DNA of 57,072 nt from Emiliania huxleyi CCMP1516 (GCF_000372725.1 NW_005201286.1:292105-349176), one strand, 5' to 3'. Positions 2,467 through 50,400 are shown, numbered from the stretch's first letter. The notes: generated by a model not told the origin, from the sequence alone. Made by a program: numbers and translations.

Positions 2467-3766
2467 TCAGTGCGCTGCCTGCCCTGCGACCACGACGAGG
2501 CGTGTAGAGAGCACGGGGGGCCGAACAGTCGCATCTACGAGACGCACCAGCAACGCCCGCCACTCCGACACCTCATTGCCCGACGCTGCGCCGCCCGCCG
2601 CTGCGCCGCCCACGGCGCCGCCCCCACTCTTGCGCATCTGCTGCGACACGCGCGTCGCCTCGCGCAGCGCCGTCGCCGTCGCCTCCCTCGCCTGCACCGT
2701 CGGCGCGCGGCTCGGATGGCGGTGGAATGCCGTCTCTCGGGCACTCCTTTCGACTACCAGATGGGCAGCCATCCGCATCTCGGAAGCCCTCACCCCCCGC
2801 TCGTACGCGTGCGCCGCGGCGCGCCGCGCGCGCTGCTCCAGGTAGAATCGGCCGAGCCGCTCGCGCAGCGGCGCGGCGACGCTGGCGCTGGCTCGGAACC
2901 AGTGCTCGCGCAGCACGACCCACGACCCGTCCGCGCCGACGGCGACGTCGAGCACTTCGCCAGCCGCGATGCTCGGCTCGCCTGGCGCGCTGCAGACCTT
3001 GTCGCCTCGGCGCGCAAGCTCGGCGGCGACCTCGCCTCCGAGGCCGGCCCACTGCGACCCCTGCGAGTCGGCAATGAAGTAGGCGCCTGGAGGAGGAAGA
3101 CCGGGACGCTTCAGGGAAGCTTCCGGCGCGCGGCGTCCGCGAGCCTATGAAGATGGCGCCGCCGGGCAGCAGCCGCACGACGCCGATGGTGCCCTTTGCG
3201 TCGTGCAGCTTCCGGATCCGCTTCTGCAAGCCGGCGGCGACGTGCTCGGCGCCGCAGAAGCCGTTGTGGCCTTGCAGGATGAGCCAGCGCCCCTCGTCCC
3301 CAAACGCCACGTGCAGCCTGCTCTCGGGCAACGCTGTCCACTTGCGCAGCTGCCTCGACGCCGCAAACGCCGAGTCCCACCACGAAAAGGTGGAGGTGCC
3401 GCCGGCATCAACGCCGTGCACGAACCACTCGCCCGCCGCGCCGAAGCTGACCTCGTTGACGTGGTGGTTCTTGGTGCGCATCTTCTCGAGCTTGGCTGCG
3501 AGGGCGGCGGGGACGCCGCCCTCGCTCCACGAGCGAGTCTGCCAGTGCGCCGCGCCGTCCGTCTCCTCCAGGAGCAGCAGGAAGTCCGCGCCCGTCCGCC
3601 CGAGGAGCAGCTTGACCATCGGGCCCGCACTAGACCCTTGACGGCCGAGCGACGGCGGCGCTGGCGGGCGGTCCTGCTGAGTGCGAGGCTTGGGGCTTGC
3701 GAGGAACGGATCGCCATGAGCTCCGTTGTTGGGAGCCTTGTCGTCAGTCCAGAGGTCGAAGACCAT
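2467..3766 (-). CDS. Hypothetical protein with repeated (V/F)xFG/VG-x-x-G-x-W beta-motifs; exons 3766-3160 and 3086-2467
   Basis: A GC-AG intron at 3159-3087 joins ORFs 2573..3766 and 2467..2955 in frame. Repeated motifs: VSFGAAGEWFV, VAFGDEGRWLI, VAVGADGSWVV. Confidence 0.6.
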
Positions 3767-4036
3767 GGTCGGAGAACGCGTGGCGGTTAACGACGTACGG
3801 GTTAACCCGTGAGCTGTTTACGACGAGGTGGTGCTGCTGCTGCGGTCCGTGGCGGCGCCGCGGTTCGTTCCGGAGCGCATTTTTCTTCCGGACTGCCGGA
3901 GCCGAGTTCAAAGTTTTCTTTCTTCTTCAACGCCGAAGCTCAAACGCTGGCAGGCCGCTCAGCTAGCTAGGGCTCGGCCGACCGTCGAATCTGGCGACTC
4001 ACGACGGCGGGCGGGCCACCGCCCCCACCCTTCACT

Positions 4037-5476
4037 CTACAGCCCCGGCGCCCACGCCTCGACCTTCTTGGGCAGCAGCTGGTTCGACAGGTCCTCTCCG
4101 TGGCCTAGGCAGCCGTGTTCGCCCTGGCCCCAGGCGAAGACAGCGCCGTCAGCGGTGATGGCGATGCTGTGGTCGATTCCCGCGGACACAGCGACGACGC
4201 GCCGCCCTTCCAGCGTCTCGACCTTCTTCGGCAGTAGCTGGTTCTGCTCGTCGCCGTGGCCCAGCTTGCCAAAGGTTCCCTGGCCCCAGCTCCAGACGGC
4301 GCCGTCGGTGGTGATGGCGAGGCTGTACGCGGTTCCAGCCGACACAGCGACCATGCGCTGGTCAGCCAACGCCTCCACCTTCTTCGGCAGCAGCTGGTCC
4401 TGCCGGTCGCCGTGGCCCAGCTGGCCATCCTCTCCTTCGCCCCAGCTCCAGACGCTGCCGTCGGCGGTGAGTGCGAGGCTGTTGCCGCCTGCAGCGCTGT
4501 GGCCGCCTCCAGCTGACACAGCGACGACGCGGTGGCCGGCAAAGGCCTCGACCTTCTTGGGCAGCAGCTGGATCTGCTGGTCGCCGTGGCCCAGCTGGCC
4601 CCACTCACCAAAGCCCCAGCTCCAGACAGCGCCATCGGCGGTGATTGCGAGGCTGTGGGCTGCTCCAGCCGACACAGCGACGACGCGGTGGCCAGGAAAG
4701 GCCTCGATCTTCTTGGGCAGCAGCTGGTTCTGCTCGTTGCCGTGGCCCAGCGGGCCACAGTCACCAAAGCCCCAGCTCCAGACAGAGCCGTTGGCGGTGA
4801 TGGCGAGACAGTGGTACGTTCCAGCCGACACAGCGACGACGCGCTGGCCAGCAAAGGCCTCGACCTTCTTTGGTTGCCACTGGTGCTGCCAGTCGCCGTG
4901 GCCCAACCGGCCAAAGCCTCCATCGCCCCAGCTCCAGACGGCGCCGTCGGCGGCGAGGGCCAGGCTGTGTTTGCGTCCCGCCGACACGCTCACGGCGCGC
5001 TCGCCGCCCAGGGAGGGGAGGAGGGTCGGCGTGTTGAGCTGCGTCACGCCCTCGCCGTGGCCGAGGAGGCATGGCTGCCCGCTCGCAGCCAAGCCGCACG
5101 ACGAGAGCCGCCCCTCGCCGTCGATGAAGACGCTGTGAGACTGGCCTGCCGCCGCCCTCGCCGGCGGGTTGGCCTCGCGCAGCAGCGCAGCGAAGCACAG
5201 CCACCGCACGGCGCAGTCCTCGCCCGCTGGCTGCGCCGGCAGCTCGAAGCCGCGCTCTTGCGCCCACAAGCGGATGGCCTCTACCGCGAGCGAGGCGTAA
5301 AAGAGCAGCGAGACGGCCGCGACGCGAGCGATGTCGGCGGGGTCGCAGCGAGAGAGGGCGCGCACGAGGAGCTCCGTCGGGAGGTCGAGGAGGCGGGCGG
5401 GCGGCGGCGTGTCTGGCGGGGGCGCGGCGGAGGCGGCGCCGGCGAGGCGGCGCGAGCGGCGCGGTGGGGTGGACAT
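4037..5476 (-). CDS. F-box-like N-terminus plus RCC1-repeat beta-propeller protein (~7 repeats)
   Basis: LLDLPTELLVRALSRC (F-box-like), then repeated VSAGxxHSLAxTADGAVWSWGxGxxGQLGHGD units. Intronless. Confidence 0.92.
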   Translation of the reverse strand: MSTPPRRSRRLAGAASAAPPPDTPPPARLLDLPTELLVRALSRCDPADIARVAAVSLLFYASLAVEAIRLWAQERGFELPAQPAGEDCAVRWLCFAALLREANPPARAAAGQSHSVFIDGEGRLSSCGLAASGQPCLLGHGEGVTQLNTPTLLPSLGGERAVSVSAGRKHSLALAADGAVWSWGDGGFGRLGHGDWQHQWQPKKVEAFAGQRVVAVSAGTYHCLAITANGSVWSWGFGDCGPLGHGNEQNQLLPKKIEAFPGHRVVAVSAGAAHSLAITADGAVWSWGFGEWGQLGHGDQQIQLLPKKVEAFAGHRVVAVSAGGGHSAAGGNSLALTADGSVWSWGEGEDGQLGHGDRQDQLLPKKVEALADQRMVAVSAGTAYSLAITTDGAVWSWGQGTFGKLGHGDEQNQLLPKKVETLEGRRVVAVSAGIDHSIAITADGAVFAWGQGEHGCLGHGEDLSNQLLPKKVEAWAPGL

Positions 5477-5779
5477 CGCGAGAAAAGAATTTCCAGCGTC
5501 CACAAAAGATTTTTCACTGCTTTTTCGTTGTCAGATATAGATATATTATCACGATGCATCCGAAGGGGACCCCAGCGCCGGCATCATCCGTAGAGGCACG
5601 AGTGTTCGAAGAGAGAGTGGACCTGAGCAACGATATGACCTGGAGGCAAATGATCGGAGTGGGAGTCAGAAATGTGGTCCTTGCGCGAGGGGAGCTCGAT
5701 AGACTCGAGGGGCCAGGATACGCCGCGAGGAGGACGGAGTTGCGCCGAAAGGCGAAAGAAAAGCCGCGAGAACAAGGGA

Positions 5780-5895
5780 CCGGCAGGCGGCGGCGTCGCA
5801 GGACGAGGCAGAAGAGAACGACGCGACAGAGGAGGAAATGACAAGGGAGAGAACGACGAGAGTGGGACGACCGCGAGGTGGCATGAAGGTTGCAG
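5780..5895. repeat. Dispersed repeat; a second copy lies in inverted orientation at ~54100-54206
   Basis: caggcggcggcgtcgcaggacgaggcagaagagaacgacgcgacagaggaggaaatgaca...gaacgacgagagtggg...gcatga aligns with the reverse complement of 54100-54206. Confidence 0.75.
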
Positions 5896-7723: not shown

Positions 7724-9358
7724 ATGGAGCTGCAGCACCCTTCCGACCTCAGCGCGTACGAGCTCGAGCGGCTCGACAACATCAAGCGCAACGCGGCCGT
7801 GCTTGCCTCGCTTGGCCTGGCCGACGGGAGTGGGCTCGGGAGCTCTCCAAGCGCTCGGCCGATCAAGCGGCGCAAGCCAGCTCAGGTGAGGCCTCTGGCG
7901 GCGCCCGAGCGGCGCAGCTCGCGGCTCGTCGACGGCGCCAAGGCCCCAGACTTTTACATCGCAAACGAGACGGCGAGCGGCAGAGTCACGGTTGGCGGGG
8001 ACGCGAGGGCGCTCCAGCAGGCCACGCAAACCGCCACCGCCGCCGCTGGCGCAGATTCGATGGACCCGCTCACCCTGTTTGGGCTCGGCGCGATGCCCGA
8101 GGGGGAGGACGACCTGCTGGAGAGCGAGCGCGCCGCCTTCGCGAGCCTGCGCGACGCAAAGCGGGCCAAGGCGAGCGAGCTCGGCATCGAGGGCTACAAG
8201 ATCGCACAGCACCGCTCGCTGGCCGAGGTGGTGCGGCGGTGCCCGACGGAGGTCGAGGCACTCCGCGCTTGCTGGGGCTTTGGCGGCTCGGGCGTCCGCG
8301 TCGACAAGTACGGCGCGATGTTTCTGGAGGCGCTGATGCCACACGTCCCGCGGCTCCGGCGGGCCCACGCGGCTGCAAAGGCGGAGTACGAGGCGGCGGA
8401 GGAGGCGAAGGGGTCGGAAGAGGGGGAGGCGGGCGGCGACGGGGCGGAGGGCGGCGGCGGGGAGGCGGGGGAGGGGAGGGGAGGGGCCGACTCGGTGGCG
8501 GCGGCGGCGAGGCCGTTTGGGCAGATGCCCTCGAGCGCGAGCGAGCTGCTTCCGGGCGAGGCTGCCGTGTACGAGGCTTTAATTGGATTTCTTTAATCAA
8601 TTTAATCTTTAATTAATTTAGGCGAGGCTGCCGTGTACGAGGCGCTCATCGCCGCGACGCACGCCAGGGCGGAGGAGCTCGGCGAAGGCTACGTCTGGAG
8701 CATCGCACCGGCGCGGTCCGTGTGCGAGATGGTGCGGCGCGCGCCAGCGAGCATGGAGGAGCTGCGGTCCGTGTGGGGGTTTGGCGGAAAGGGGTTGCGC
8801 GCACAGCGGCATGGCGCGCCGCTCCTCGTGGGACGGCTTGCCCGGCGTGACACGGTTGGCTGAGCGTGAGGGGCAGCGGTAGGCGACTTCCTCCTAACGG
8901 CGCTGGCGCCGCACCTGCCATCGCTCCGGGCGCTGCACTCTGCGGCGGGCGTGGCGGCGGGCGAGGCGGCGGGCGAGGCGGCGGGCGAGGCGGCGGCGCA
9001 TTTGTCGGTCGCCGTCTCCGGCCCGGAGGTCTCGCGCCCTGAGAGGGAGGGCAGCTCCGTGGGGCAGCGCCGCGTGCGCGCGACACCGGAGGCGGCCTCC
9101 GGGCAGCGGGAGAGCAAGTGGCGGCGCGGCAACAAGCACGCGGCGAGCGCTTGGGACGCGGCGTTGTCGGCGATGCAGTCGGTCGACCCGGACGACGGCG
9201 AGGTGGCGGCGGTGGCGGCGGCGGCGGAGGAGGAGGAGGAGGGAGGCGCCCGCAAGGTGAGGGGGCGGGGCACACCGGGCTCAAAGCCCAGAGCGGTTGA
9301 CTGCGATTCGCGGCGGACGACGCGCGCGGCGAGCAAGAAGTGCAAGTCGAGGGTGTGA
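7724..9358 (+). CDS. Tandem HRDC-domain protein; exons 7724-8555, 8622-8813, 8883-9358
   Basis: N-terminal LSAYELERLDNIKRN motif. Two HRDC-like units (AFASLRDAKRAKASELGIEGYKIAQHRSLAEVVRRCPT...GFG...KYG and VYEALIAATHARAEELG...EMVRRAPASMEELRSVWGFG...RHG). GC-AG introns at 8556-8621 and 8814-8882 restore the frame. Confidence 0.78.
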
Positions 9359-10818: not shown

Positions 10819-11465
10819 TCATTCCATGGCGGAAATTGCTCCCGACGGCGCTGGCTGCGATGCGGCCGCGGTCGCTGGCAACACGCCCGCGGCGGGCTCG
10901 GGCGCAGCAGCCTCGTCGGTCGAGGACGGCAGCGAGCCAGGGGCGAGTGGCGCGGCGGGACTGCCGTCGACGCCTGCGGCGTGCCTGGGCTGGGTGGCTG
11001 GAGCGGGCGCCGCAAATGCAGGCGCAGCCCCCGCATCGCTCGAGCTCTGCCCCGGCTCGGAAGGGCGCGCCTCGCCCGGTTCGGTCCGCTGGCGCTTCGA
11101 CGCCTCCGCCTGCAGGGTGGGGCCGGCCTGTCTGGCGTGAGCGGGGTGCGGGCCAGCCCGGGCGCTTTGCCGGGCGCCGCTCGCGCCTGCGCGTCCTCGG
11201 CCGCGCACCGCTGCAGGTGGCTCTTGAGCGAGTCGGTGAAGCCTCTGAAGCCCAGCGTGTTGAGCACCGCAAGCAGATCCGCCTCAGTCACCGCGTCGCG
11301 GCCCTCGCGCGCCACGCGCTGCCGGGCCTCGCTGACGAGCAGGCTGAGGAACTCGCCGGTACAGACCTGGACCGCCTCGACGGCGTCCTCCGACAGGGCC
11401 GCCCGCGGCTCAGTGCTGATGGTGTGCGCCATGACGTGGCGCACGCCGCGGATGGGAAGAGACAT
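10819..11465 (-). CDS. Histone-fold protein of the NF-YB/Dr1/DPB4 (CBFD_NFYB_HMF) family; exons 11465-11187 and 11109-10819
   Basis: LPIRGVRHVM...LSEDAVEAVQVCTGEFLSLLVSEA...GRDAVTEADLLAVLNTLGF matches the NF-YB-type fold. GC-AG intron 11186-11110. Confidence 0.85.
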
Positions 11466-19608: not shown

Positions 19609-19783
19609 TGAAAGTGCTTGTTTGAAAGTAAAGTCTTGCCACGTCTTTCCTGATATGGTGGTACGCATTTTTGCACACTAGCCAACGTCATGGCCGTAAT
19701 GAAAGTACTTTGAAAGTAAAGTCTTGCAACGTCTTTCCCTGAGATATGGTGGTACGCATTTGCACACTAACCAACGTCATGGC
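19609..19783. repeat. Tandem duplication of an AT-rich unit of ~88 bp (2 copies)
   Basis: tgaaagt...tttgaaagtaaagtcttgc(c/a)acgtctttcc..gatatggtggtacgcattt..gcacacta(g/a)ccaacgtcatggc occurs twice. Confidence 0.9.
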
Positions 19784-20486: not shown

Positions 20487-21126
20487 ATGAACTCGTTCGC
20501 GCGGCGCGGCGTGGAGTCGAGTCCGTTCGTGCGCATGCTGAAGCGGAGCGGACGCACGCGGCAGCGCACCCTCGTCGCAGCCGTGCTGGGCACCTTCTTC
20601 TGCTTTGCCGCCTTTTTCCATCACTACGAGCAGATCAACGACGACTCGACCGTCTTCACGTGGTTCGGCATGCGATCGGACGGACGGTGCGGCCGCGACT
20701 TTGGCATGGAGCACGTCAAGGAGATCACCTGCGGCAAGGGCGCCTGCTGCTCCTCCCACGGCTGGTGCGGCCACGGAGAGGAGTACTGCTCGGTCGCGCT
20801 CGGCTGCCAGAACGGCTGCTGGCCGGCAGACCCGAATGCACGGCCGGAGACGCCCGATGACGAGCCGGACGACCGCTACCGCCACCACATGATGGACGAC
20901 GACGGCGGCCACTACCGCGACCGCGATAGGTACGATGACTACCGACACGGCGACTACCACCACGACGACTATCACCACAGGTGACTGCCTCTGCTCCCTT
21001 CCGGGCCTGGGCGGGAGAATTGGCCCACACGCGTTCGCCTCTTCCCACAGGTACGACGACATGCACCCCGACCACGACGAGCCCGACCACGAGGTTCCTG
21101 ATCACGACGATCACGACGAGGGCTGA
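20487..21126 (+). CDS. Type II membrane protein with a hevein/CBM18 chitin-binding domain and a His/Asp-rich tail; exons 20487-20980 and 21051-21126
   Basis: TM LVAAVLGTFFCFAAFF. DGRCG...CGKGACCSSHGWCGHGEEYC...GCQNGC is the hevein consensus. GT-AG intron 20981-21050. Confidence 0.85.
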
Positions 21127-26032: not shown

Positions 26033-26297
26033 GGTGTGTGGCCTCCGCGTGAAACAGCGGCGACAGGCGCTGCCTCTCGGGTTGATGATGGAATTCTTTT
26101 TCAGTGACCTGGTCGTCCGTCGTCATTACCTACTACTACTACTTGACGCTTTTCTTTCTTTCTTCCCGCTCAAAGCTCTTGCGGCGCATGAAATTACTCG
26201 TCCGGAGCGTTACACGCCGATATCCGCGCGGCGCGGGCCTCCTTCTCCCTCGAGCGACCCGTGAGGTGAGTCCAATCTCCAACATCGTCGGCAGCCG

Positions 26298-27362
26298 ATG
26301 CCGACGCCGCAGATTCCCAGCTGTCCAAGCTGGGATTGCTCGGTCCTGGGCCAGGTCTGCACGGAGGGCTCCGGCTACACCTGCTGCGCCGCGGTCCTCC
26401 CTGAGCACGTCGGTGACTGCTCGGGAAGCCTATGTTGGTTTGAAAACAGCGGCCTTCCCTCCGGAGAAGTCTGCTCCGCCTCGCCCGCAGTCCCACCGCC
26501 ATTGTTGCCACAGCTATCGCCGCCGCCACCGCCTGCGCTGCCACCGCCGCCGCCGCCGCTGCTGCCGCCGCTAGCACCAGGGCAGATTCCCAGCTGTCCA
26601 AGCTGGGACTGCTCGGTCTTGGGCCAGGTCTGCACGGAGGGCTCCGGCTACACCTGCTGCGCCGCGGCGAACGTCCCTGAAGACTGCTCGGGAATGTGTT
26701 GGTTTGACAACAGCGGCCTGCCCTCCGGAGAAGTCTGCTCCGCCTCGCCATGCTCAAATCACTGCCAGCTCAATACAACGATCATCATCGTCATGTCGGT
26801 GCTTGGGCTGCTGATCGCTATAGCGGGTATCCTAGTTTGCTTCTACATAGCGAGGAGGCGCAGAAGGCTCAGGCAGGTGGCACCACCCGGCTCGGCAGTG
26901 TCCCAACGCAAGGGCAGCGCCTGCGATGTGTTCGGCAGCTACAAGCAGAATGACGGCACAGACGGATTGCTGTTCAACCTCTTCTACACTCTGGAGATGA
27001 AAGGCATCGACCTCTGGCTCGACAAGAAGCGCGGGAGCGAGCGCAGCGAGGCGGGCATGCGGGCTGGCGTGCGGGCCTGCAAGCTGTTCTGCGCGGTCAT
27101 CTCGCCGAAATACTTTGAGTCAGCCTTCTGCCTTTTGGAGCTACGCACGGCGCTCTCCCACAAGAAGCCGATCGTTGTCTGCTTCAACAGCAGCAAGTTC
27201 ACGGTGCAGCAGGCGATGTCCTGGATCCCGGAGGAGTTCAGGGGGCGGCTGCTGAGCAATGAGGTTGTCGCGCTGCACGAGGACGACGAGTACATGCGGG
27301 TTGGTGTGGAGAAGGTCGCGGCGCAGCTCAGTCTGAGCTCGCCCGAGCAGTCACTCAGTTAA
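26298..27362 (+). CDS. Single-pass receptor-like protein: two Cys-rich repeats, Pro linker, TM and cytoplasmic TIR domain
   Basis: Near-identical repeats at 26309-26485 and 26582-26749 (CPSWDC...C...CC...C...CWF...C). TM IIIVMSVLGLLIAIAGILVCFYIA followed by RRRRR. TIR motifs: DVFGSY, LWLDK, VISPKYFESAFCLLEL, PIVV. Confidence 0.85.
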   Translation: MPTPQIPSCPSWDCSVLGQVCTEGSGYTCCAAVLPEHVGDCSGSLCWFENSGLPSGEVCSASPAVPPPLLPQLSPPPPPALPPPPPPLLPPLAPGQIPSCPSWDCSVLGQVCTEGSGYTCCAAANVPEDCSGMCWFDNSGLPSGEVCSASPCSNHCQLNTTIIIVMSVLGLLIAIAGILVCFYIARRRRRLRQVAPPGSAVSQRKGSACDVFGSYKQNDGTDGLLFNLFYTLEMKGIDLWLDKKRGSERSEAGMRAGVRACKLFCAVISPKYFESAFCLLELRTALSHKKPIVVCFNSSKFTVQQAMSWIPEEFRGRLLSNEVVALHEDDEYMRVGVEKVAAQLSLSSPEQSLS

Positions 27363-29854: not shown

Positions 29855-32800
29855 TTATGCGGCCTTTCCCGCGACCCGCACAAAGAAGAGGCGCCCTCCG
29901 TCAGCCTCGACCTGCCACCGGCTCGCGTCGACCGACCCGGCCGCGTGCCACACCTCCACAGCCCAGTGCGCCAGCCCGCAGAAGTTGCCCGTCGCCTCCT
30001 CGATGCCCCACCCCGTGGGCCACGCGGCCAAGGCGGTGCCGAGAGGCGGCGGCGGCGCCGCGGTCGCCTCGAGACGCGCCGCGACGGCGTCAAAGGCGAT
30101 CCGCCTCGCGCCCGTCGCGGCCGCCTCGGCCAGCAGCGCCTCCCCGGCCAGCCGCGGGAGGTCGCCCTCCGTCTCGAACCAGCACGACGAGCGGCCGTCG
30201 GCGCACGCCTCGTCCCACGCCTTGAGCTGGCGGACAAAGGCCGCCAAGCTCTTGAGGTGTGCATACTTGCGCTCGGTGTGCGCGCTCGCCATCTTCAGCC
30301 GCGCGTCCTCCCACCGCCGGCTCGCCATGCCGGGCGCGCTGTTGACGTACCTGCGACGGAAGGGGGGGGGGGGGGGAGCTCAAGCGACACGCGTCGCGAG
30401 CCAGGAACACAGAGCCCCGCACGTGATCCGGTCGGCGTCGATCGCCTCGCCCAGCGCCCAGTCCGAGTCCTTCTCGACGCGCGAGAAGAGCGTGTAAATG
30501 AGGCCGAGGAACAGCTTCTCCATCGAGATGTGGTTGGCGACGTGCGCGATCATGAACTCGACGTCCTTGCTGTCGCCGAAGCTCCCCCCCTGGGTCTTGT
30601 GCGCGACCGTCGCGTACCCCGCGCGCAGAGGCACGCCCGTGCGCGTCGCGTGCCTAGATCGTCACTGCACCAAAGTCAGGGCGCGAGCACTCACGGTGAC
30701 GAGCAAAGTCGGGCATCGAATTCACGGGGCTGCGAGTTTTGCCGATGCGGCCAAATGCAGTGTGCGCTCTCGAGTGCTAGTCGGAATGCACGGATCTGTA
30801 TTCTTTATCTAAGGCTGCGTTCCCGGCGCGCTGGCCCGTCGCGCCCGACTCGTCCTTGCTGAAGCTGCGGTTGACTGGAACGGGGACCCACTTCTCGCGG
30901 CCAGCGCCGCGAAAGAAAGCGGGGCCGTCGTAGGCCGGAAAGCTGACGACGGCGGCGACCGGAAAGTGCTGCGGAGGCTGCTCGCCGGGCTTGAAGAGGA
31001 AGGCGACGATCGTCCCCCGCGCGCCGTTGTTGAGCTTGAAGAAGACGCACTGGTTCTTGGTCAACACGGTGGGCGAGCCCACCGCGCCCAGGAAGGTGCG
31101 AGGGATCTGGCCAACCTCCTTATCGGGGCCTTTGGGGGGCTGGCCCTGCGTCTCGGAGGGCACCACACACACGGGGTGTTCCGTCGCCTTGCGATGCTCC
31201 TGCAGCCGCTGCGCGTTCATCTCGTTGGTTGGCGCCCACGTCTCGTAGACGTCGAGGACGCGCTTGCCCGCGGCGGCCTGCCGCTCGGCTGCCGGCAGCC
31301 GGTGCCAGAGGCGCGACATGCACTGCTGCCAGTGCTCCTGCGTCGCCTATGGTATTCGAAGAGGGCCGGTCGGTCCTGAGGGCACGCGCCGTGCTCTGTG
31401 TGACGCCAGCGCTCGCGCGTCGCCTCGCCGCGGCGGATGGCGAGGAGGCGCGCGAGCAGCGCCGCCTGGTCCGGCCCCTGGCGCATGGTCTCGTCGAGCA
31501 CGATCACGTCAAAGCCCTGGCGGCGCAGCTGCCAGCCGCGCTGCGCGATCGGGCCGCGCGACGAGCCCGGCTCGAGGTGCGCGCCGCCACCCTCGGAGGC
31601 GGGCAGCTGCCCGTGGTCGCCGCACAAGTTGGCGGCGGGGACGCCGCCAAACGAAGTCAGCTGGCGGGCGGACGGCGGCAGAGACGAGAGGCACGCCTGG
31701 CCCAGCCGCGCGTCGATCCACGCGATGTCCTCGGACGAGATCATACCGTCCTCGTCCAAGTTGAAGACGCGAGCCGCGCGCCTGCCGCGCTCGCCGGTCA
31801 GCCGCCGCAGCCGGTCCATCGGCTGCGCCCCGAGGGGCGCGTCGTGGACTGTGAAGGTGGCGCGGTGCTTGCGCGGCACCTCGCCGGCCGGCGTGATCGA
31901 GTGCCACGTCCGCCCCCCCGGGTTAAGCACCGCCGCCGACCCTGTGGGGGCGGCGTTGATCACCGCCAGGTTGTCGTTGAAGAGCCGGCGCGCAAAGAGG
32001 GTTACTCCCTACCAGAGAGGTGCGCCGTCCCAGGTCGGCCGAGGTGCGGCCGAGGCGCGGCCGAGGCGCGGCCGAGGCGCGGCCGAGAAGCGGACCTTCA
32101 CGACGAAGGACTTGCCGACGCCGGCCGTCCCAAAGATCTTGAGCCGGCTCTGAATCGGATACTCGTCCTCGTTCTCCGCAAGGCCGCCCTTCGCCTCGGC
32201 CGCACGCTCTCGCTCCCAGGCGTCAAGAAGCGCCTCAAAGTTGATGCTGAGGGCGAGACGCTGCAGCGCGTTGGCGCGGAAGAAGGAGGGCAGACGAGGC
32301 AGCGTCGCGCCCTCGCCCTGGCGGATGAACTCGCCCGCTTTCTCGCGCCCGGCAAGCGAATCAAGAGCCTGCCCGATCCCCGCCACCGCCTCCCAGTCGA
32401 GCACCGGTCCGCCGTCCGCGTTGAGGCACTGGATGCCGTAGTCGTGCCACGAGGTAGCCCACTCGGGAAGCCTGCAGTCCTCCGCATCGATGGTGCCGAG
32501 GTCGCCGTCGTCGGCTGCCGCCTCGAGCCCAGCCTCACCGAGCGCTCGCGCCTGCGCGTCCACCTCCTCCGCAAACCCCTGCCTCCACTCGCCCCTGTCG
32601 TCGCCGTCCGAGTCAGACTCGTTCCAAGCGGCCCCTGCACCGCCGGCGGCGAGGCCGTCGCCAGGCGAGGCGCCGTCGTGACCGCCGCCCGGGCGCGCCC
32701 GCCCGCGGGCAGCCTTCGCCGCCTCGGCCGCCGCCTTGCGCTCTGCACGTCGCCGCGCCCCCTCCACCTCCTCACGCACCATTCGGATGCGGCCGGCGCG

Positions 32801-35800: not shown

Positions 35801-38800
35801 CGCCGTGCGCTCAACCGACCCGGGGAAGGTCACAACGGCAGCGGGGCGCGCCTCCATGTGCGATTGGAGCGCCGCGAAGCGGCCGCGGTTGAAGTCGATA
35901 AACGGCTGCACCAGGGCCGGGGGGTCGGCCGCCTGCGGCGGCGCACCCGTCGGCGCGGCGGCGCACACTCCAGGGCCTGCAGCAGCGGCGGGCGCGGCTG
36001 GCGACGGAGGGGAGGCGGCAGCGGCGGCGGCGGCGGAGGGGCGTGGCGGCGGCGCTGCTCGCATCAGACGCGCGATCAGAGGATCGCTCCGCGCGAGTCC
36101 CATGATCGGCGGCGGCGGAGACGACGGCGAGCCCGGAGGCGACGGAGGCAGGGACGGAGGCAGCGCGCCCGCGAGCGAAGACGCCCCCGCGAGCGAGCCC
36201 GAAGGCGGGCCGGCCTGAAGCAGCCTGGCCGAGCGACGGACGCCGGCCGAGGCACCGGCGGCCGAGGCGCCGGCGGCCGAGGCGCCGCCCCGCCCGCGCT
36301 TCTGGCCGCCCCGGCCGCCCCGCCCCGTCGGGGCCGAGCGAGCGCGCCGCCGCGCTGCGGGGGCACCCGGAGCCGGGGCATCCGGGGCATCCGGATGCGG
36401 CGCGCCCCCCGCCCCGTCCGCGGCTCCGGGGCCCGACATCCACCCCCAGAGCGCTTCCGCGGCGCGCGAGGCCGCGGCCTGGCTCTCCGGGGTCTTGTCG
36501 AAGAGCTCGTTGACGCTGCAGCCGGTCGAGGCGAGGAGCTTCTCACGCTGCGCGTGGTGCGAGAAGGACATCGCAAGCCCGTGCGCGTGCGCAGCGCCGC
36601 GGCCCTTTGCAAACTCGAGGCGCCACCACGCGTCGTCGTACTCGAGGACCTCGCGGAGCACAGTGCTCCAGAAGTTGACCGTGCGCGCGTCGAAGTACGC
36701 GACGACGACGTGCGAACACTCGAGCAGCAGGTTGCGTGCCCTGTCGGGCGACAGCAGCTCGGCCGCCCCCTCCGCGCCGCGTGTGGCCCAGACGTACTCC
36801 TCGAGGAGGGCGCGCATCTGCGGCCAGTGGAACTCCGCCATCGAGTTGGTCTGAAAGTAAGTCGGCACGTCGCCGTGCGCCGCCCGACGGAACTGCTGCA
36901 GCGCGCGGAGCTTGGTGTGTTCTCCGCGCCAGTACATTGGCGAATTTTTGAGGTTCGCGCCGATCGAGAGGATCTTGCGGGGGACAGACTCGTCCCCCGC
37001 CTCGAGGGCCTGCACAAGCTCGGGCACCGTACGGTGTGCCTCCGCCAGCTGCTGGGAGACGCAGTAGCCGGCCTGCTGCGACGCCTTGAGCCGCATCAGA
37101 AGATTAGTGAGGTGGATCTTGAGCACGGCGCCAAGCCGCCCATCCGCCGCAAAGACGAGATGCGAGACGGCGACGGAGAAGTCGACCTTCCGCAGCCGCG
37201 GCACCGTCGGGTCGCCGGAGCCCGCGACAAACACCGTCGGGTAGCACATCCCGAAGAAGCCCTCCGTCGCGAGCTCGCGCACCGGCGCCCCCGAGCTGCG
37301 AACCCAGTCAGCGCTGCCGACGCCGGCGCCGGCAAAGAGGGCGTCTGCCTTGGCGCTGTCACCGTCGAGCAAGTCGAGGACGAGGCGGCGCACCTGCGGG
37401 CCGGAAGCGAGTGGCGTCGGCGCAAGCAAGGAGTGGGCTAGGGCACGCGAGGCTCCGCGGCGGCACCTCGGCATCGGCGTCCTTGGAGTCGATCGGGGAG
37501 ACCAGCCCCGAGTGGCTCACCGAGCCGTCCCCGTCGACCTCGGGCGGGAGCTCATTCTGCGCCGGGGCGGGACCGCCCTCCTCCTCCTCCTCCTCGGCCG
37601 CGCCGGCGGCGCGCGCCGGCTTCTCGTGCACGGGCAGCCCAGGCAGCTCGGCGCGCTCCTCTGGCACGGCCTGCTGCCTTTGCTGCGACATCACGACGTC
37701 GGAGTAGTACCGGTTGGGGATGTGAAGGAACCAGCGGCCGCTGAGCCGCTCGCCGGAGGGGAGGTCGGGGCCGGAGTACCGCTCCCAGTCGGCGGATGCG
37801 GAGTAGAGAGCTCGCACATCATACACGTCTACGAAGTAGCTGTCGACGGTCGGCCGGTGCGGCGAGCCGCCCGGCGGGTCGCCGCGCACGAGGCCGGTCA
37901 GCGCGCCCTGCACCGATCGCCTATCCGCCGCGAAAGCGCGCCCACCGTCGTGGCGCGCGCCCGCCTTGCGCAGGATGATGAGGCCCAGCTCGCTCGCGTG
38001 CCGAGGCAGCTCGCGCGCCACCTTGAACATGTCGTTTGGTAACGTCGTGCAGCTGCCGGCGGACGAAAGCATGCCGCCCGACATCCTCCTGATGCGCATC
38101 ACGGGGATGATCCGCGCGATCAGCATGCTCTCGACCTGCGACAGGCACTTGAGCCATGACGGGGCGACGCGGAGGTGCATGTCGTTGTGCCGCATAGCGT
38201 CTGCGGGCGGCCCGAGGTCGTCCGGCAGGACGGTGCGCACACCCGAGAAGAGCTGGCAGCGGCCGCGCGACTCGCGGCGCCGGTGCTTCCGGCAGTCGGT
38301 GCACACGTAGAGCAGGCGACGGAGGTGGCGCCAAGCCAGCTCATCAGGCGACGCGCGCCACACGCTGAGCGAAACGGGCGGCGTGCCTTCCGGCCGGAGC
38401 GGCGGCTCCACGGCCGGAGTGCACATTAACATCGGACGGCACGTGTCGCAGACGTGGCAGCGCCTGCGGCACTGGGCGGCGCAAGAGTGAGGGGGACGGG
38501 TGCACTCGCCGCACCGCCGCCGCACCGCTCAACGCGCACCGGACGCGGTGCAGCTGCTCGCCGGCCTCAAAGGCGACGCCCGCCTCGCGCACGCGCGGGT
38601 TGGAGTGGGCGGAGGCGTCGCCGAGCACGCGGTCGATGGCCTCGTCGCACACTTCAAAGCCGCCGCTGACGAGGGGTGGAGGGAAGGGGACGGAGGAAAT
38701 GGTCGGATGCGATGGTGGCGGCTGAGAGCGAGGGCTAGTGGCGGTGGCTATGGTGGCCTCTCCGCCCGGGGAGAAGAGCGCATCATGCAGGGCGTGGTGT

Positions 38801-41243: not shown

Positions 41244-42340
41244 TTTACACCACACGGCCCTGCGTGGCCGCGGGAAGGGTGTTGGTTGAGACGCGGGGCG
41301 ACTGCGGACTGGGTGGGCGGGGCGAGGGCGGAGGGGCGGAGCAGCGACGCGCGCGCGACGGAGGGGCGGAGCAGCGACCGCTGGCGCGGTCGCTGCTCCG
41401 TCTGTGCCAGAGACACGCGCTCTGCCCCTCCACAGAGCGCGCGTGAGGCAAGGTGGGGGCAAGCGTGGCGGCGCGGGGACGCGCGGCGGCGGCGGCGAGC
41501 ATCCGAGCGCTCCGTGCGCGGTGAGGCGGCCGGGCGAGGGCGCGGCGGGCGACGGGGCAAGGGAGCAGCCGGGCGAGGAGAGGTAGGAGGTGCTCGCCGG
41601 CGAGCGCTCCCGCGCCTGCGAAGGGGCAAGGCCTGAGGGCGGGCGGGCGGGCGGGCGGGCGGGCGCGGGTGGGGGGGATAAACGCTGCGCCGCCAAAGGA
41701 ACCAGCGACACTGGCCGCGGCTCGTCGCCACGCGCCGGCTCGGAAGAGGGGCTGTCGGCGGCGAAGCAGAGTGGCACGCCTCGCCGCTCGAGCCGCCGAC
41801 AGCCCCCCTCCTCGACGTGACGGCCGCTCCCGGAGCCGGCCGGTGCGCGCCCGACCCACGCCCCCTCTCGCACCCCTCCGACCCCCCCTGCGCGGCGCAC
41901 CCGTCCGCTGTGCGCCGGCTCGAGCGCCTATTGCCAAATCGCGACGTTTGAGCGCAGCGCACGCATCCTCTGGGCGCCTGAGCGCGGCGGAATCTTGCCA
42001 GAATGTGGCCGCAGGAAGAGCCTCCGGCGGGCCTCCGGCGGACGCCTGGCGGCGTGGCGCTGCGCGCCGGCCTGCGGCCCAAAGCCCGAACGAGCGGTCA
42101 AGTTAACTTGACGCGCCGAATCCCTTGGTTGGCCCTCGCAGCTGTGATACAAAAGTGGGGACGCGCCTGGCGGCGCGCCCCCAAAAAAAGAGCCGATGAA
42201 TGCGCACGGCTAGCGTCAGCTGTCATCCCTCACTGGGGTTGTCCGTTATTTATTTTTCTTTTTTCAGCCGTCACGACTTATTTGCGCCTGCATACCTCCA
42301 ATTTCTTTTCCGCGGCCCATGGGTAATTCTTTTCCTCGCG

Positions 42341-43416
42341 ATGTCGCTCGCGCATGAACGTACACATATGCGCCACGCCGCCTCGGCCTCCACCGCCGCC
42401 CCCTCGCCAGACACGCCGCCGCCCGCCCGCCTCCTCGACCTCCCCACGGAGCTCCTCCTGCGCGCCCTCTCTCGCTGCGACCCCGCCGACATCGCTCGCG
42501 TCGCGGCTGTCTCGCTGCTCTTCCACGCCTCGCTCGCGGAGCAGGGCATCCGCTTGTGGGCGCAAGAGCGCGGCTACGAGCTTCCGGCGCTGCCAGAGGG
42601 CGAGGGCTGCGCCGTGCGGTGGCTGTGCTATTTGGCGCTGCTGTGCGAGTCCAACCCGCCGGCGAGGGCGGCGGCAGGCTCCTCCTACAGCGTCTTCATC
42701 GACGGCGAGGGGCGGCTCTCGTCGTGCGGCTACGCGCCGCCTTTCTATCCAGGACTACTCGGGCACGGTGAGGGGGTGACGCGGCTCAACACGCCGACCC
42801 GCCTCCCGTCGACGCTGGGCGGTGAGCGCGTCGTGAGCGTGTCGGCGGGAGGATGCCACAGCCTCGCCCTCACCGGCGGCGGTAGCGTCTGGAGCTGGGG
42901 CCATGGAGGGGATGGCGAGCTGGGCCACGGCGACCTGCAGGACCAGTGGCAGCCGACGGAGGTGGAGGCCTTCGCTGAACGGCGCGTCGTCGCTGTCTCG
43001 GCTGGAGCCCGCCACAGCCTCGCCCTCACCGCCGACGGCGCCGTCTGGAGCTGGGGCTGGGGAGCCGGTGGCCAGCTGGGCCTCGGCGACCGGCAAACCC
43101 AGTGGCAGCCCACGAAGCTCGAGGCCTTAGCTGACCAGCGCGTCCTCGTCGTATCGGCAGGACGCGAACACAGCTTCGCCCTCACCGCGGACGGTAGCGT
43201 CTGGAGCTGGGGCATGGGAGCCCAAGGCCGGCTGGGCCACGGCGACCAGGAGCACCAGCTGCTGCCCAAGAAGGTCGAGGCCTTGGCAGGCCAGCGCGTC
43301 ATCGCTGTGTCGGCGGGAGGCGAACACAGCCTCACCCTCACCGCCGACGGAAGTGTCTGGAGCTGGGGCTTTGGAGTCGAAGGCCAGCTGGGCCACGGCG
43401 ACATGCAGAACCAACT
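42341..43416 (+). pseudogene. Truncated paralogue of the F-box-like/RCC1 gene
   Basis: Highly similar to 4037-5476, but homology stops at ...GDMQNQL (43416) after ~5 repeats. The ORF continues through unrelated sequence to 43636. Confidence 0.7.
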
Positions 43417-44677
43417 GGCGGGAGAGAAGCCGGGGGGGACCTCACTGGTGTCGAGCGGGCGGATGGCTTCTTGCCACCCGCTCAGGAGGCTTCGTTGTGT
43501 TCCCCCCGTCCGCCAGCGAGACTGGCTCAGTCGCTGGCGGCCGCAGTCTTCTGTGAGGGGCGACTTTGCGCTGGCCACTGCTCGCGCGGTCCTGACTGAC
43601 ATCGGGCGTGACTGCTGCTGCGGCTGGCTCCTCTAGCGCCTGCAGAGAGTCCAGAGAGTCTCATCAGAGACGCACCGGACGCGTTGCTACGTGTGCCAGC
43701 CGCTTCTGGCCTTCTATTCGTGGTTGTGCATGTGTCATGTGATAGGGTGACGAAGGACCGCGGTGGGGTGGGGGCGGAGGCGCCGGCGGCGCGCACACCC
43801 CGCCCGCACACGCCGTCGCCGCAGGCCCACTCCACGCTCCATATTTTCCAATACATAAGAGAGAGTACGTACATATAAGAACAGGAGGCTGGCACTACGC
43901 TCTGTCAATCTGGCGAGAGCTCGAGAGGGGACGGCTCTCGGCTGACCTGTACAGACTACGGCCCTCTACAGAGCACGGTGCACAGTGTCAGTGTCATGTC
44001 TCATGTCACATGTGTGCGGACCCCGTGCAGTCACTACTGACTCGGACTCAAGGAATTTGAGAGATTGCTCTCGCTGATCCACACACTGAGCGCTATTTGT
44101 AGACGAGAGGTTCAAAAGACGAACGGGTTCTTCGGCAACAGTCGGCTCGATGGCCAAACCGTGCCACCAAACTTCCCGATGTGCTGCTGCTTGGTGGCAA
44201 CGGCTCGGCCCAGGAGGTAGGAGGCCATTGCCGTAGTAGAGACGAGCAGCGCGTTCAAGTGCGAGGTGGGCATATTGTGACCTGCGTTGGTTGGGGTCGC
44301 ACGTGAGTGGAGCGGCAGCGGGAAAGTGGCGTGCGTGCTCAGGTGAGCGTCGTCGTGGCGAATGTCATGACTGGTGGTGTGGTGATGGTATGAGCGTCGT
44401 TTGTTTGGCTGCTGCCGGCGTGTGGTGGCAGTTGTGGCGCTGAAGCAGAGGCCGCTGCGGTGAGGGCTCTCCTTAGCGACACGCGCTGAGAGCAAGGATG
44501 ACAGGGGTATAGAAACTTCGGCCCTTTTATGATCAAACGCAGCGGGGTTTATTTTCTTCGCGCGGTGCCTCAAATCCGAGCACCTTTGGCAGGGACGAAT
44601 AGGTGTGTGTGTGTACGATGTCCGCGTCAGGACAGCGCGACCACCGCAAGGTTGATCGCGCCGCACCCTACATTACC

Positions 44678-46631: not shown

Positions 46632-47451
46632 ACATTACCTACAGACAGTCTGGGGAGAAGCCGGACCAGGCCTCGCTCGCGAGCACCGCCGGATGGGAGA
46701 GTACATACAGGACGTCTGGCGAGTAACTGTGTACGTGAGATCGGTCTTGGTACCAGGCACGGTCGAACTAGGTCCCTAGCGCGGTTTCATGTTTGTAATA
46801 TCCTCACAGAGACAGAGATGTTTGTCGCGCACGATGAGCAGGACGACGCGGAGGGTGAGCGCTGTGGTCGCCGCAGACTGGCGCCGACTTGACGGGCGCA
46901 TGGAGACGTGATGCCTCCATGCGCCCGTCGAGTCAAAATCGACATGCGAGGCGATCTTTGGCCCGCCAGAGGATAGGCGGCGTTTTGGGCGACAACAGCG
47001 CGGCGACCGCGAGGTGGCGGTGGGCATGCTCCCATGTTGCCGACGCGGCGCCGGAGTGGCCGGCGCTGCTCGCCGCGACCACGACGGATACTCTGATACT
47101 CCGGGCCGACCCGTCCTACCCGACACGGTGGCACTCTTCCAGTTCCACGTCTCGCTCACGCTGAGAAAAATTCTGAAACGGCGTGCAGCATAGTCGCCGA
47201 CGAGTCGGTCCGCGTGCCTCCTCGTGTCCCGCACCGTGGTGACACATCCATAAACTCACTTTTGCCTCACTGAAGCGATGCCTGAAATCCTGTGAATCCT
47301 CGGATTTTAGATTAGGACGCTGTCCACCCCCTATTTTCACAGCAACCCCGCTCACCCCGGTCGAAGGACACGCGCACACTCCGTCGCGCGGCTACAAGTG
47401 CGCTCTCTCCATGGCCCAGCCGAGTCCGCGGCCGGGGGTGCGCCAGGGAAC

Positions 47452-50400
47452 TCAGAGGAGGCGGTACTCGCCCGCGATGACAAAGCACATGCAGTCGACT
47501 TGCATGCCGTCCAGCGCCCGCCGGACCGCCGCGGCGTCCGCCCCGAGCGCCGCCGACGCGGCCGCCAGCTGGGCGAGCGTAGCGCCCCCGCGCTCGCGTA
47601 GCAGCGCCTCCACGTGGGAGCGGAGGGCGGGGTCGGGGTCGGGGAGCCGGCCGGCGGCGTGCGCCGCATCCCGCGGCGGCGGCGGGCGCGGAGACGGAGG
47701 AGCGCCCGACGGCGCGCGCGGAGATGGAGGGTGGCTTGGGTGCCGCAACGTGCGCAGGCGGCCGCGGTAGGCGAGGGAGCAGAGGGCGGCAAGCTCGGCG
47801 AGAAGGCGGCGAGTCTCTGGCAGCTTGCTCTCGCGCTGCAGCTCGTCGGCGTGCGGGCGGAGGTGGGGCGAGCGCTCCGCGGCGTGCGACCTGACGAGAT
47901 GTAGCCGAGATGTAGCCGAGATGTAGCCGAGATGTAGCCAGCCGAGATCTAGCCAGCCGAGATCTAGCCGAGAGACGGCGTGCGGCCTGAGCAGCGCCGC
48001 GCGGCTGCCGAGCACGTTCGCCTCGCAGAAGTGCAGAAGGAGCGCCCCCTGCCGCGCGAAGCGCTCGCTGCCCTTCGGCGGCTCGAAGCGGGTCGCGTGG
48101 CCGAGAGCCGCGTCGCGCACCGAGACGGCCTCGCCGAGCCTGACACGCGGCGGCGGGTCGTGCGCGCCTGAAACAAGGAACGCTTGCGGCTAAGACCGGC
48201 GGGGAGTGGGGGGGGGGGGGGGGGACCAAAGAAAACACGGTCGTAGGTGAGCGCGTCCAGATTCGGCGTGCCGCCCTCGGCCATGAGCTGCTCGTCGCCG
48301 GTCTTGCGGGCATTGCAGCCCACATTTGCGTGCCCGTAGTCATCCCCGAGAATAAGGACAATGTGCGGCTTGCCCTGCCTGTGGCACCGCAGATAACGCC
48401 CAGGCCACCGCCCCCCAAGCGACCAATGNNNNNNNNNNNNNNNNNNNNNNNNNNNNNNNNNNNNNNNNNNNNNNNNNNNNNNNNNNNNNNNNNNNNNNNN
48501 NNNNNNNNNNNNNNNNNNNNNNNNNNNNTACAAGAGGGGGGGGGGGGAGACAAAGAGAAGAGGGGAGGTTGGACGGCGGGTCGTGTGTGCGCGCCGTGCG
48601 TCCAGCGCACGCACAGCACGGCGCCGGTGGCGTCGCCGAGGTAGAGGGAGCGAGAGAGGCGGCCTGAAGAGAGACAGTCCTCGTGCAATTCGGCAGTTCT
48701 GTTTGTGGCGGCCGAGGTAGAGGGAGCGCGAGAGGCGGCCGAAGACGAAAACTACGCCGGGCCGCGCGTGCGGTGTTTCTTTTTGCGGCGGCCGAGCTAG
48801 AGGGACAGAGGCATTCCTGGGCCATCTGGAACGGGCGCCGTCGCGAGCAGCAGCAGCCCCACCGTGTCCACCTCCTCGCCCGCGCCGCGCGCCGCGAGGC
48901 CCGCCAGCGGCGTGAGCCTCCGCACGCGCGCTGCGGCGGCGGCCGAGACCGGCTCCGCCGACTTCATGCGCGCCCAGCTCGCCGATCTCGCTACGAGCTC
49001 GGCCTCGCCGCCCGCGCCGCGCCGCAGCCGTGCGCCGATCACCTTGAAGGCCGCGCCCTCGTCAAACTCGTCCGCCTGCCCCGGCGCGTCGAGCCAGACG
49101 GTCGCCAGACAGACCCTGTCGACCCCTCCGCCGCCTCCGCTCAGGTCGGACACGCGCAAGTTCAGCACCCATGACGCGCGAGGCCGAGCCGCCCACTCCT
49201 CTTCGGCGCCTCCCGCTCCTCCTCCGCCCGCCTCGCCGCCGTCCAAGCTCGCCTGCTCCCTGCGCCAGCTGAGCGCCTCCGCCTGCTCCTGCAGCTTCGA
49301 CTCGTACCCGGCCGCGGTGAGCCAGCCGGCGCCTGAAGATGTACTGGGGAGAGTTGAAGTGGAGCACCGTGAGAGAAGCGGTGCACAGGTAGGGGTACAC
49401 GGACAGCACTGTCATCTGGGGATAGTAGGAGTGGAGGGTGTTCCGGGTAGTCGACTCATGGTAGCGGCGGGATGTGAGGAGCGATGGACACCGGACCTCG
49501 TCCGGCCGCGTCTCCCTCGGGCCGCTCGTACACGCGCAGGCCGTAGCGGCGCTCGACTCGCACGTGGACGCACGGCGCCTGGCCGCCCCCCTCCAGCAGC
49601 GAGCCGAGTGCGACGCGGAAGCCGCACGAGGCCGTCTTGCCCAACTTCGCGTCCCAACTCGCACGCCGCACGCCATTCGCGCTCAGCTTGAGCGCCGGCA
49701 GCGGCAGCGCCGGCGCATCCACGCCGCCGCCCTCCCCCGAGCCAGCTGCGCCGCTTCCTCCCTCGCCTCCGCCGCCTCCTCCTCCTCCTCCGCCTCCGCC
49801 TCCGCCGCCTCCGCCTCCGCCGCCTTCGCCGCCCCCGCCGCCTCGGCCTCCGCCTCCGCCTCCTCCGCCGCCTCCTTCGCCGCCGCCTTCGCCTTCTCCC
49901 TCGGAGATGATCCCGCACCCGCTGAGCCGGAGCTTTGTGCCGACGGCGACCCTCCCCTTCCGGATTTGCCGCAGGAGGTGAGCGTCCGGCGCCTGCGTCG
50001 TGAACGCGCCGACATGAGGGCGGGGAGGCGGTCTTGTGCAGTGTGTTCAGAGCACCGCGTGAGTACAAGGACGAGTGTGCAGTGTGTTCAGAGCACCGCG
50101 TGAGTGTACGAGGAAGGCGAAGACAGCGGACTCCGCTGAATACGGCCGAATACAGCGGAGTCCGTGCCTCCCGCGCGAGTTGCAAGGCATGACTACGTCT
50201 TCCGCTTCTAGCGTCAAGCGCCGCCCACAGGCATCGCCACCCGTCAGTCAGCTCGAGCGCCCCGTCCTCGCACCGCACCGCTGCGACGCAAAGCACCATG
50301 CCGACGCTCGGTGGGTCGGTGCCGTCCTCGATGCGGGAGAGGACCGAGCGGTGGCGCTGCACTCGCTCGCGCCGGTGCCGGTGCGCCAGCTGGCCCACCA

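Follow-up and report, generated by a model that had tools for sequence, protein, structure and literature searches.

This analysis concerns the introns of a 57-kb stretch of Emiliania huxleyi nuclear DNA (the window), where the splice junctions of a set of introns in several genes lie within direct repeats of varying length. Outside an AT-rich stretch at 52-54 kb, the G+C content of the window is 57-74%; positions 52001-54000 (GC 0.41) form its sole AT-rich region and enclose an 811-N gap (52333-53143), and there are three N gaps in all. The UniRef protein P0024 from Emiliania huxleyi is 98% identical to the window translation, and another gene of the window has its closest named homolog in the haptophyte Chrysochromulina tobinii. 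Our evidence consists of the window itself, contig sets of public runs, protein databases and one metagenome contig, where the contig sets are treated as transcript-like and the RNA status of the runs is presumed. The genes that recur below are a plus-strand gene with two HRDC domains, a minus-strand gene matched by P0024, and a minus-strand Helitron-like gene with Rep and helicase parts.

Repeats across the splice junctions

The introns described in this section are listed here by the extent of the whole feature. A slash within a sequence marks a splice junction, and a contig joint between two positions is written as a>b.

8555..8643, plus strand: intron 8556-8621, GC-AG, 66 nt, phase 1, in the gene with two HRDC domains.
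47880..47990, minus strand: intron 47891-47986, GC-AG, 96 nt, with joint 47889>47986 in runs X1 and X2.
48151..48595, minus strand: intron 48168-48594, GC-AG, phase 1, spanning the N gap 48429-48528, placed by P0024 mapping.
48627..48816, minus strand: intron 48664-48816, GA-AG, 153 nt, phase 1, placed by P0024 mapping.
31328..31425, minus strand: intron 31347-31423, GC-AG, 77 nt, phase 0, in the helicase part of the Helitron-like gene.
3074..3160, minus strand: intron 3087-3159, GC-AG, 73 nt, phase 1, with joint 3081>3155 ('both' 6, 4/4 runs).
49981..50222, minus strand: intron 49993-50221, GC-AG, 229 nt, phase 0, where contig pieces end at 50218 and 50210 with leftover letters.

The clearest anatomy is that of the HRDC gene, where intron 8556-8621 is flanked by a perfect direct repeat of 23 nt (23/23; 8555-8577 = 8621-8643) that includes the G before the donor. 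Between the two copies lies a 43-nt filler (8578-8620) of about 86% A+T, set within 70% GC DNA and forming one of three AT-rich islands in the 57 kb. Two contigs (X2 rec13 and X6 rec18) end at 8554 with letters left over, consistent with this junction, a stop at 8554 being the expected placement for a joint with 23 ambiguous bases. Taking out exactly 66 nt gives the sequence found ungapped in seven haptophyte homologs (P0003-P0007, P0009 and P0010), ...LLPGE..AYEALIAATH..., while keeping the intron brings in TAA as a stop, which is just how P0002, a protein of another strain, ends. The metagenome contig L001 is identical to the window at 417 of 421 positions across the HRDC locus and retains both introns of the gene, and is therefore genomic DNA of another genotype. 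Its 66-nt intron and both repeat copies are identical to those of the window, and its second intron (8814-8882) differs at three places. Metagenome contigs were also scanned with a protein pattern of the HRDC gene, without a hit.

Three further introns lie close together in the P0024 gene. In 47891-47986, a 15-nt direct repeat covers both junctions (47990-47976 against 47894-47880, 14/15), reading tcag/GCCGCACGCCG at the donor and TCAG/gtcgcacgccg at the acceptor, with the second donor base as the sole mismatch, and the filler is a minisatellite of 11-15-nt units. Two donors are used at this intron, 47986 in contigs of two runs and 47968, 18 nt further in, by P0024; the latter protein maps with a 78-nt variant of the intron, in which the repeat copy is then coding (RPHAVS before RSHA). 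Intron 48168-48594, an additional repeat-flanked case that was absent from the list in the initial annotation of this DNA, starts with g/GCGCGCAC followed by ACAC and GACCCGCCG, and the next exon starts with gcgcgcacgacccgccg (longer stretch: GCGCGCACGACCCGCCG), so that the repeat consists of 8 exact bases, a 4-nt indel and 9 more bases; an exact 12-mer pair (48151-48162 / 48574-48585) is also present. The filler (48240-48428, minus strand) is a copy of about 190 nt of the start of a sulfatase gene at 55106-55290 (plus strand), 88% identical with a 1-nt indel (blastn match of 179 nt, E = 2e-50; Pfam Sulfatase domain in the source gene). This copy is frame-broken, inverted with respect to the gene 7 kb away, and runs into the assembly gap.

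The third of these introns, 48664-48816, has a more complex build. P0024 reads ...PVPDGPG/RLSRSLYLG..., mapping 48815 to 48664, and GA-AG at 48664-48816 is the one register that ends in an AG acceptor. The intron is made up of GAAT, a unit 0 of 73 nt (48812-48740) and a unit 1 of 76 nt (48739-48664), and the exon opens with a partial third unit; the first 29 nt of unit 1 match the exon start at 28 of 29 positions, while unit 0 is a worn copy, as seen in blastn self-matches. The initial annotation had bounded the intron at 48664-48739, with a wrong 5′ end, given that P0024 splices 48816 to 48664 and the stretch it named is tandem unit 1. A low-depth contig (X2 rec11, depth 2.7) spans 48668-48832 unspliced, and a protein from another strain (P0023) reads through the start of the intron with different residues (GPGAPLPL against GPGMPLSL-stop), so the strains differ at this donor.

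The Helitron-like Rep/helicase gene occupies 30780-38528 (about 7.7 kb, minus strand; Pfam DUF6570 and Helitron_like_N), and its C-terminal part is 38-42% identical to P0108 (901 aa). It contains intron 31347-31423 and the candidate intron 37394-37466, and a perfect 63-nt tandem repeat in three copies (35225-35414) lies inside its open frame. At 31347-31423, a 21-nt junction-spanning repeat that includes the AG matches at 18/21 (3 mismatches), and the flanking exons align to consecutive P0108 residues, reaching up to 585-586 and resuming from 587-588, with 77 nt removed and frames consistent. No Pfam domain extends across the 31347 or 37394 junctions, and among the joint rows listed there is no joint for 8556-8621, 31347-31423, 37394-37466, 48664-48816 or 49993-50221. 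The two remaining introns of this group carry imperfect repeats: g/GCGCCATCTTCAT against G/gcgcctacttcat at 3087-3159 (12/14), and g/GCGCTTGACGCT against G/gcgccggacgct at 49993-50221 (11/13). The interior of 49993-50221 holds a perfect 30-nt direct repeat (50035-50064 / 50076-50105), an internal tandem duplication of 41 nt and a palindrome with 19-nt arms, and is otherwise unique sequence.

Taken together with the shorter repeats described below, the duplications measure 7, 8, 13, 14, 15, about 18, 21 and 23 nt. The repeat spans both junctions and usually starts 1-6 nt upstream of the donor; the donor G/GY lies inside the upstream copy in 8 introns, and the AG lies inside the repeat in 3. The fillers share nothing with one another, as 15 intron pieces compared by blastn within the window gave no filler-to-filler matches, and the sulfatase copy was the only match between an intron piece and the rest of the window. 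Where homologs allow the comparison, at 8556-8621 and 31347-31423, the spliced products are colinear with them.

Excess of junction repeats over chance

Donor and acceptor surroundings were compared with an ungapped junction score (+1/-2), extended both ways from the junction. The wider set consists of 14 candidate introns, of which 13 are supported, and is partly selected. Within it, a repeat-blind set of 10 was assembled from 7 clean joints, taken from the 30 joint rows listed (15 of 69 for four runs and 15 of 50 for runs including X1 and X2), together with 8814-8882, established by homolog colinearity, and 48168-48594 and 48664-48816, established through P0024. The totals of these 10 introns at their own donor and acceptor are 3, 5, 8, 4, 7, 8, 12, 9, 4 and 3 (sum 63), and half of them (5/10) score at least 7. 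When donors and acceptors are mismatched, the pairs average 3.93 and reach 9 at most, with totals of at least 7 in 7-8%, and none of 73,693 derangements reaches either the sum of 63 or the count of 5 with a total of at least 7. A same-locus null of 34,958 decoy G/GY..AG/G pairs, 40-400 nt apart and with tandem arrays masked, gives a probability of 0.021 for a total of at least 7, or 0.050 with the same GY on both sides; under these rates, at least 5 in 10 has a probability of 1e-6 to 6e-5. The excess of repeats over chance holds for the set as a whole.

The introns with short repeats and those without a strong repeat are as follows.

20975..21052, plus strand: intron 20981-21050, GT-AG, 70 nt, phase 2, with joint 20974>21045 ('both' 8, 4/4 runs).
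11107..11190, minus strand: intron 11110-11186, GC-AG, 77 nt, phase 0, with joint 11106>11184 ('both' 7, 3/4 runs).
37394-37466, minus strand: candidate intron, GT-AG, 73 nt, in the Rep part of the Helitron-like gene, placed by reading frame only.
8814-8882, plus strand: intron, GC-AG, 69 nt, phase 1, the second intron of the HRDC gene, with junction RHG/DFLL as in the homologs.
2318-2547, minus strand: intron, GT-AG, with a transcript joint and a total score of 3.
2692-2793, minus strand: intron, GT-AG, with a transcript joint and a total score of 5.
49333-49496, minus strand: intron, GT-AG, 164 nt, with joint 49331>49496 in runs X1 and X2, total score 3 and no repeat.

The repeats at 20981-21050 (8 nt, ccacag/GT, 8/8) and 11110-11186 (7 nt, gcag/GCG, 7/7) both contain both splice sites. 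At 37394-37466, only ag/GTGC is shared (total score 6), with further similarity after an indel, which is within chance, and a 55-nt alternative intron fits equally well. These weak cases, the 7-8-nt repeats and 37394, are individually not significant. Intron 8814-8882 lacks a repeat, with only g/GCG common to both ends (total score 4), while 2692-2793 reads g/GTGAGGG against G/gcgaggg (7/8), the difference lying at the second donor base. Intron 49333-49496 is unspliced in contig X1 rec5 (49305-49525), and a portion of the intron has a coding score in a different frame. The case may be one of intron retention, described as common in E. huxleyi (PMC4028052).

Each of the 14 candidate introns agrees in phase with the best coding frame on either side, and all have an AG acceptor, with 8 GC, 5 GT and 1 GA donors. 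Of the 13 supported introns, 12 are followed by an exon that opens with GY, against a rate of 19.8% for GY following AG in coding DNA, and the upstream exon ends in G in all 12 tabulated introns. Several approaches contributed nothing to the set. Joins across kilobases with sides of 20-25 letters were discarded as not being clean introns, as were the joints 9897>10327 and 45114>45470; further joints were set aside for having 154 letters between their sides (1957>2069), for lying within RCC1 repeats (4482>4663 and 4482>4820), for joining opposite strands (41390>41580), or for having 3 letters between and a side of 25 (45070>45154). A Viterbi gene finder placed both ends correctly in 2 of 7 known introns, usually mis-setting the donor, and was not used for the intron set; when all GY..AG pairs were scanned without annotation, tandem repeats in coding sequence swamped the result; and a protein search with the FG-GAP exon found no near-identical E. 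huxleyi protein (best 37% identity) and added no introns.

Duplications also occur elsewhere in the window. Paralogous F-box-like plus RCC1-repeat genes, each with 156-nt coding repeats, lie 37 kb apart at 4040-5530 (minus strand) and 42200-43633 (plus strand), and cause false long-range contig joints. A tandem duplication of about 270 nt (26309-26749, plus strand), with exact blocks of 27-48 nt, stands at the start of a TIR-domain protein gene (26265-27359), and an 88-nt unit is present in 1.8 copies at 90% identity at 19621-19783 (plus strand), without transcript cover in the four runs examined.

The initial annotation had listed nine introns that begin with a copy of the next exon's start. 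All nine repeats are in the sequence as it described them, although one of the introns was mis-bounded and three are weak cases; 8 of the 9 sites are real introns or fit one, and contigs join four of them (3087, 11110, 20981 and 47891), with 48664-48739 differing from the junction that P0024 supports. The comparison it had proposed, of intron starts with next-exon starts against mismatched pairs, does yield an excess when made within the window on 10 introns.

Insertion as the probable origin of the repeats

These are real spliceosomal introns with junction-spanning repeats of 7-23 nt, and we consider it likely that each was born when unrelated DNA was inserted into an exon and the target bases were duplicated. 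Under this model, the upstream copy of the duplication, beginning (A)G/GY, would act as the donor, and the G of the downstream copy would complete the AG acceptor (the whole AG lies within the repeat in three introns). Splicing would then take out the filler along with one copy of the repeat, leaving the mRNA unchanged. The insertions probably came from the repair of staggered breaks, or from a replication template switch that re-entered a few bases upstream, and these routes are likelier than one transposon family because the duplications vary in length and the fillers are unrelated. The simplest account of the exact register is selective survival: an insertion into coding DNA would persist only if splicing could remove it precisely in register, and this would set the pattern G/GY ... 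AG/GY.

Several claims of the initial annotation can be judged against this model. Its duplication-driven mechanism of intron birth fits the observed order of repeat, unrelated filler and repeat, but such a mechanism has already been described elsewhere. The copy it saw at the intron start is present, but belongs to a flanking duplication that usually starts 1-6 nt before the donor and includes the AG in three introns. It had also placed the breaks at G/GC sites, for which survival of exactly spliceable insertions explains the G/GY register equally well. Its view that this is not one introner family agrees with our comparison, as the fillers are mutually unrelated within the window and the duplication lengths variable.

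A number of observations weigh against the insertion model. At 8556-8621, the insertion with its perfect repeats is present in all three genotypes (the window, the P0002 strain and L001), and no empty allele occurs among them, so here we infer the gain of the intron from its footprint. Its presence in three genotypes gives no date for the intron, and does not refute that it arose recently within the species. A source for the AT-rich filler 8578-8620 was not found in two exact-pattern scans of viral contigs. In 48664-48816, the fresh repeat copy sits mid-intron, and an extra tandem duplication or gene conversion would be needed to place it there. The repeats at 11110, 20981 and 37394 are each within reach of chance plus the splice consensus, and the sample amounts to 13-14 introns in a single 57-kb window. 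Duplications of 15-23 nt also exceed the lengths given for Daphnia (4-12 bp; PMC4202315) and for introners (3-9 bp; PMC9860276).

It is unlikely, on the evidence of the window, that these introns are introner-type transposon copies whose target-site duplication was made by a transposase. Introners do follow the same splice-site logic, where the duplication gives the 5′ site and a GY motif opens the next exon (10.1101/2020.10.14.339549; PMC9860276), and introners that duplicate 4 bp are known from a haptophyte genome bin (PMC9860276). In the present introns too, the duplication provides a splice site and the mRNA is unchanged. However, the duplication length is not fixed, with values of 7-23 nt where one enzyme would give a single length, and no filler resembles another intron within the 57 kb, where an introner family would show many near-identical copies, although the search for sister copies covered this one window. 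The intron ends showed no terminal inverted repeats, the one palindrome being internal to 49993-50221, and one filler is a fragment of a host gene, the sulfatase. A Helitron-like element is present in the window; Helitrons are not known to make a target duplication.

In the Rogers model, an intron arises from tandem duplication of an AGGT-containing exon segment, and the whole intron is homologous to the adjacent exon. The corresponding explanation here, that the repeats stem from tandem duplication or slippage of an AG/GY exon segment, or of a unit across the 3′ splice site, with nothing foreign inserted, draws on a window rich in tandem duplications (units of 29-273 nt). Also in its favour are 48664-48816, a 2.4-copy array of a 73-76-nt unit with the last copy exonic, and the internal 41-nt tandem duplication of 49993-50221. 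Such an origin predicts a filler that resembles the exon after the repeat. At 8555-8643, this homology is missing: unit identity is 0.48 despite the perfect repeats, and the filler is AT-rich where the exon is GC-rich. Perfect 23-nt repeats around an AT-rich filler unlike the following exon are a structure that exon tandem duplication cannot yield. Elsewhere the filler is a minisatellite, a piece of the sulfatase gene or unique sequence, and 48664-48816 is the only tandem structure of this kind among these introns. As a general account of the repeats, we regard tandem duplication as quite improbable.

Chance similarity, combined with an extended splice consensus G/GYG ... YCAG/GY in GC-rich coding DNA, accounts for the level of the 7-8-nt cases and 37394, since mismatched real sites average 3.9 and reach at least 7 in 7-8%, and the cases of the initial annotation had been picked by eye. 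As an explanation of the repeats in general it is very improbable, given that no derangement reaches the observed sum or count and decoys reach the threshold in 2-5%, and that the 23/23, 14/15 and 18/21 repeats lie far beyond either null. The chance reading is refuted for the whole set and stands for single weak cases only. Reverse-transcriptase template-switching artefacts in complementary DNA also carry flanking direct repeats, and all RNA evidence here comes from assembled contigs of presumed RNA status, but the probability that the introns are such artefacts is negligible, as every one has GY or GA and AG ends, retention gives stops or frameshifts (such as the TAA in 8556-8621), removal gives proteins colinear with the homologs of other species, and the joints recur across runs of different studies.

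GC donors and known routes of intron gain

The insertion model also bears on the donors. In the coding DNA of the window, GGC outnumbers GGT about four to one (1220:303), so that roughly 80% of the donors drawn from G/GY sites in exons would be GC when they arise; in this way, GGC-rich coding DNA would make duplication-derived donors mostly GC. The initial annotation had offered the duplications as an explanation for an excess of GC-AG introns, and this is plausible in view of the abundance of GGC and of the split between introns, as GC donors occur in 7/8 repeat-bearing introns and in 1/6 of the others (14 partly selected introns, Fisher p = 0.026). Against it, the association in the repeat-blind subset (4/5 against 1/5) is not significant (p = 0.21). 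The donor and its exon copy differ only at the second base in 47891 (GC against GT) and 2692 (GT against GC), a thin indication of birth as GC followed by drift to GT. The window introns fit the major type of E. huxleyi, where 241 curated junctions are 56% GC-AG and 4% GA-AG (11/241) (PMC4028052, Table 3). The transcriptome paper credits the GC donors to the GC content of the genome, in a treatment of donors that leaves repeats unmentioned (PMC4028052).

On a wider scale, we put forward only tentatively, as a possibility against which the odds still lie, that most E. huxleyi introns are young scars of a continuing, family-free insertion process, by break repair or template switching with 7-23-nt duplications, that would give rise to introns wherever the duplicated exon bases read G/GY. 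The codon composition of a 65-70% GC genome, and not a preference of the spliceosome, would then set the GC-AG share of 56-60%, with later drift from GC to GT, and the decay of the repeats would date the introns. The origin of new spliceosomal introns is still argued, and the clear cases so far comprise introner families, known from a few protists and fungi, and the break-repair gains of Daphnia. Should the pattern of this window extend across the genome, E. huxleyi would become a second system in which introns arise without a transposon family, one that is easy to culture, and there would be a mechanistic reason for its unusual GC-AG majority. Many of its strains are sequenced and its pan-genome is known, and intron presence or absence from strain to strain could measure the rate of gain directly.

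Of the known systems, the neointrons of Daphnia pulex, which Li et al. in 2009 reportedly traced to staggered double-strand break repair, are similar in several respects. In them, direct repeats of 4-12 bp copy the end of the neighbouring exon and repeats inside the intron are frequent (PMC4202315), and their inserts are unrelated, mostly without a known source, and share no element family (PMC4202315). The internal direct repeats, frequent in young Daphnia introns, have their counterparts inside 47891-47986 and 49993-50221. The differences lie in repeat length, which reaches 23 nt here, in the demonstration of gain, made in Daphnia by population presence and absence where no empty allele was seen among our three genotypes, and in the GC donors, which have no role in the Daphnia account as given there (PMC4202315). 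Repeat-flanked introns are common to both, with totals of at least 7 in 5/10 of our introns, and so are unrelated inserts, which we find within the window.

Introners are said to have been described in Aureococcus and Micromonas by Huff et al. in 2016. In dinoflagellates, one copy of the introner duplication (GHNN, GHN6 or AGGH) forms the 5′ site, and a GH motif opens the next exon (bioRxiv 10.1101/2020.10.14.339549). The introners of Symbiodinium and Polarella thus share with the introns described here a weak extended donor consensus, GH at the start of the downstream exon, and common non-GT donors. In contrast, they come in multi-copy families with inverted repeats and fixed 3-8-nt duplications, whereas our introns have unrelated fillers and longer, variable duplications (10.1101/2020.10.14.339549). 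The introners of Aureococcus, Micromonas and a Chrysochromulina sp. genome bin likewise co-opt their splice sites from the duplication or the flanking exon, but have 3-9-bp duplications and belong to element families (PMC9860276). The duplication test of Gozashti et al. (2022), which compares intron base n with downstream exon base n against random pairs, is the same as the one applied here; they describe 4-bp duplications in the Chrysochromulina bin, and E. huxleyi does not figure in their main text (PMC9860276).

Across 213 introns drawn from every class, Rogers and Bendich (2025) found direct repeats of 4-30 bp (mean 11.4) at the intron borders or close to them, and read border repeats, as we do, as insertion footprints (PMC11782384). 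Theirs is a broad survey of chosen introns, and the parts of it cited here do not deal with E. huxleyi, GC donors or the exact splice register (PMC11782384). A search of the open-access literature on the introns of E. huxleyi and haptophytes found no paper describing repeat-flanked introns in E. huxleyi. Intron birth by insertion with a co-opted duplication is already known from Daphnia and from the introners of dinoflagellates and pelagophytes. New here are the organism, duplications that are longer and more variable, the lack of a family of elements, and a link with the GC-AG majority that can be tested.

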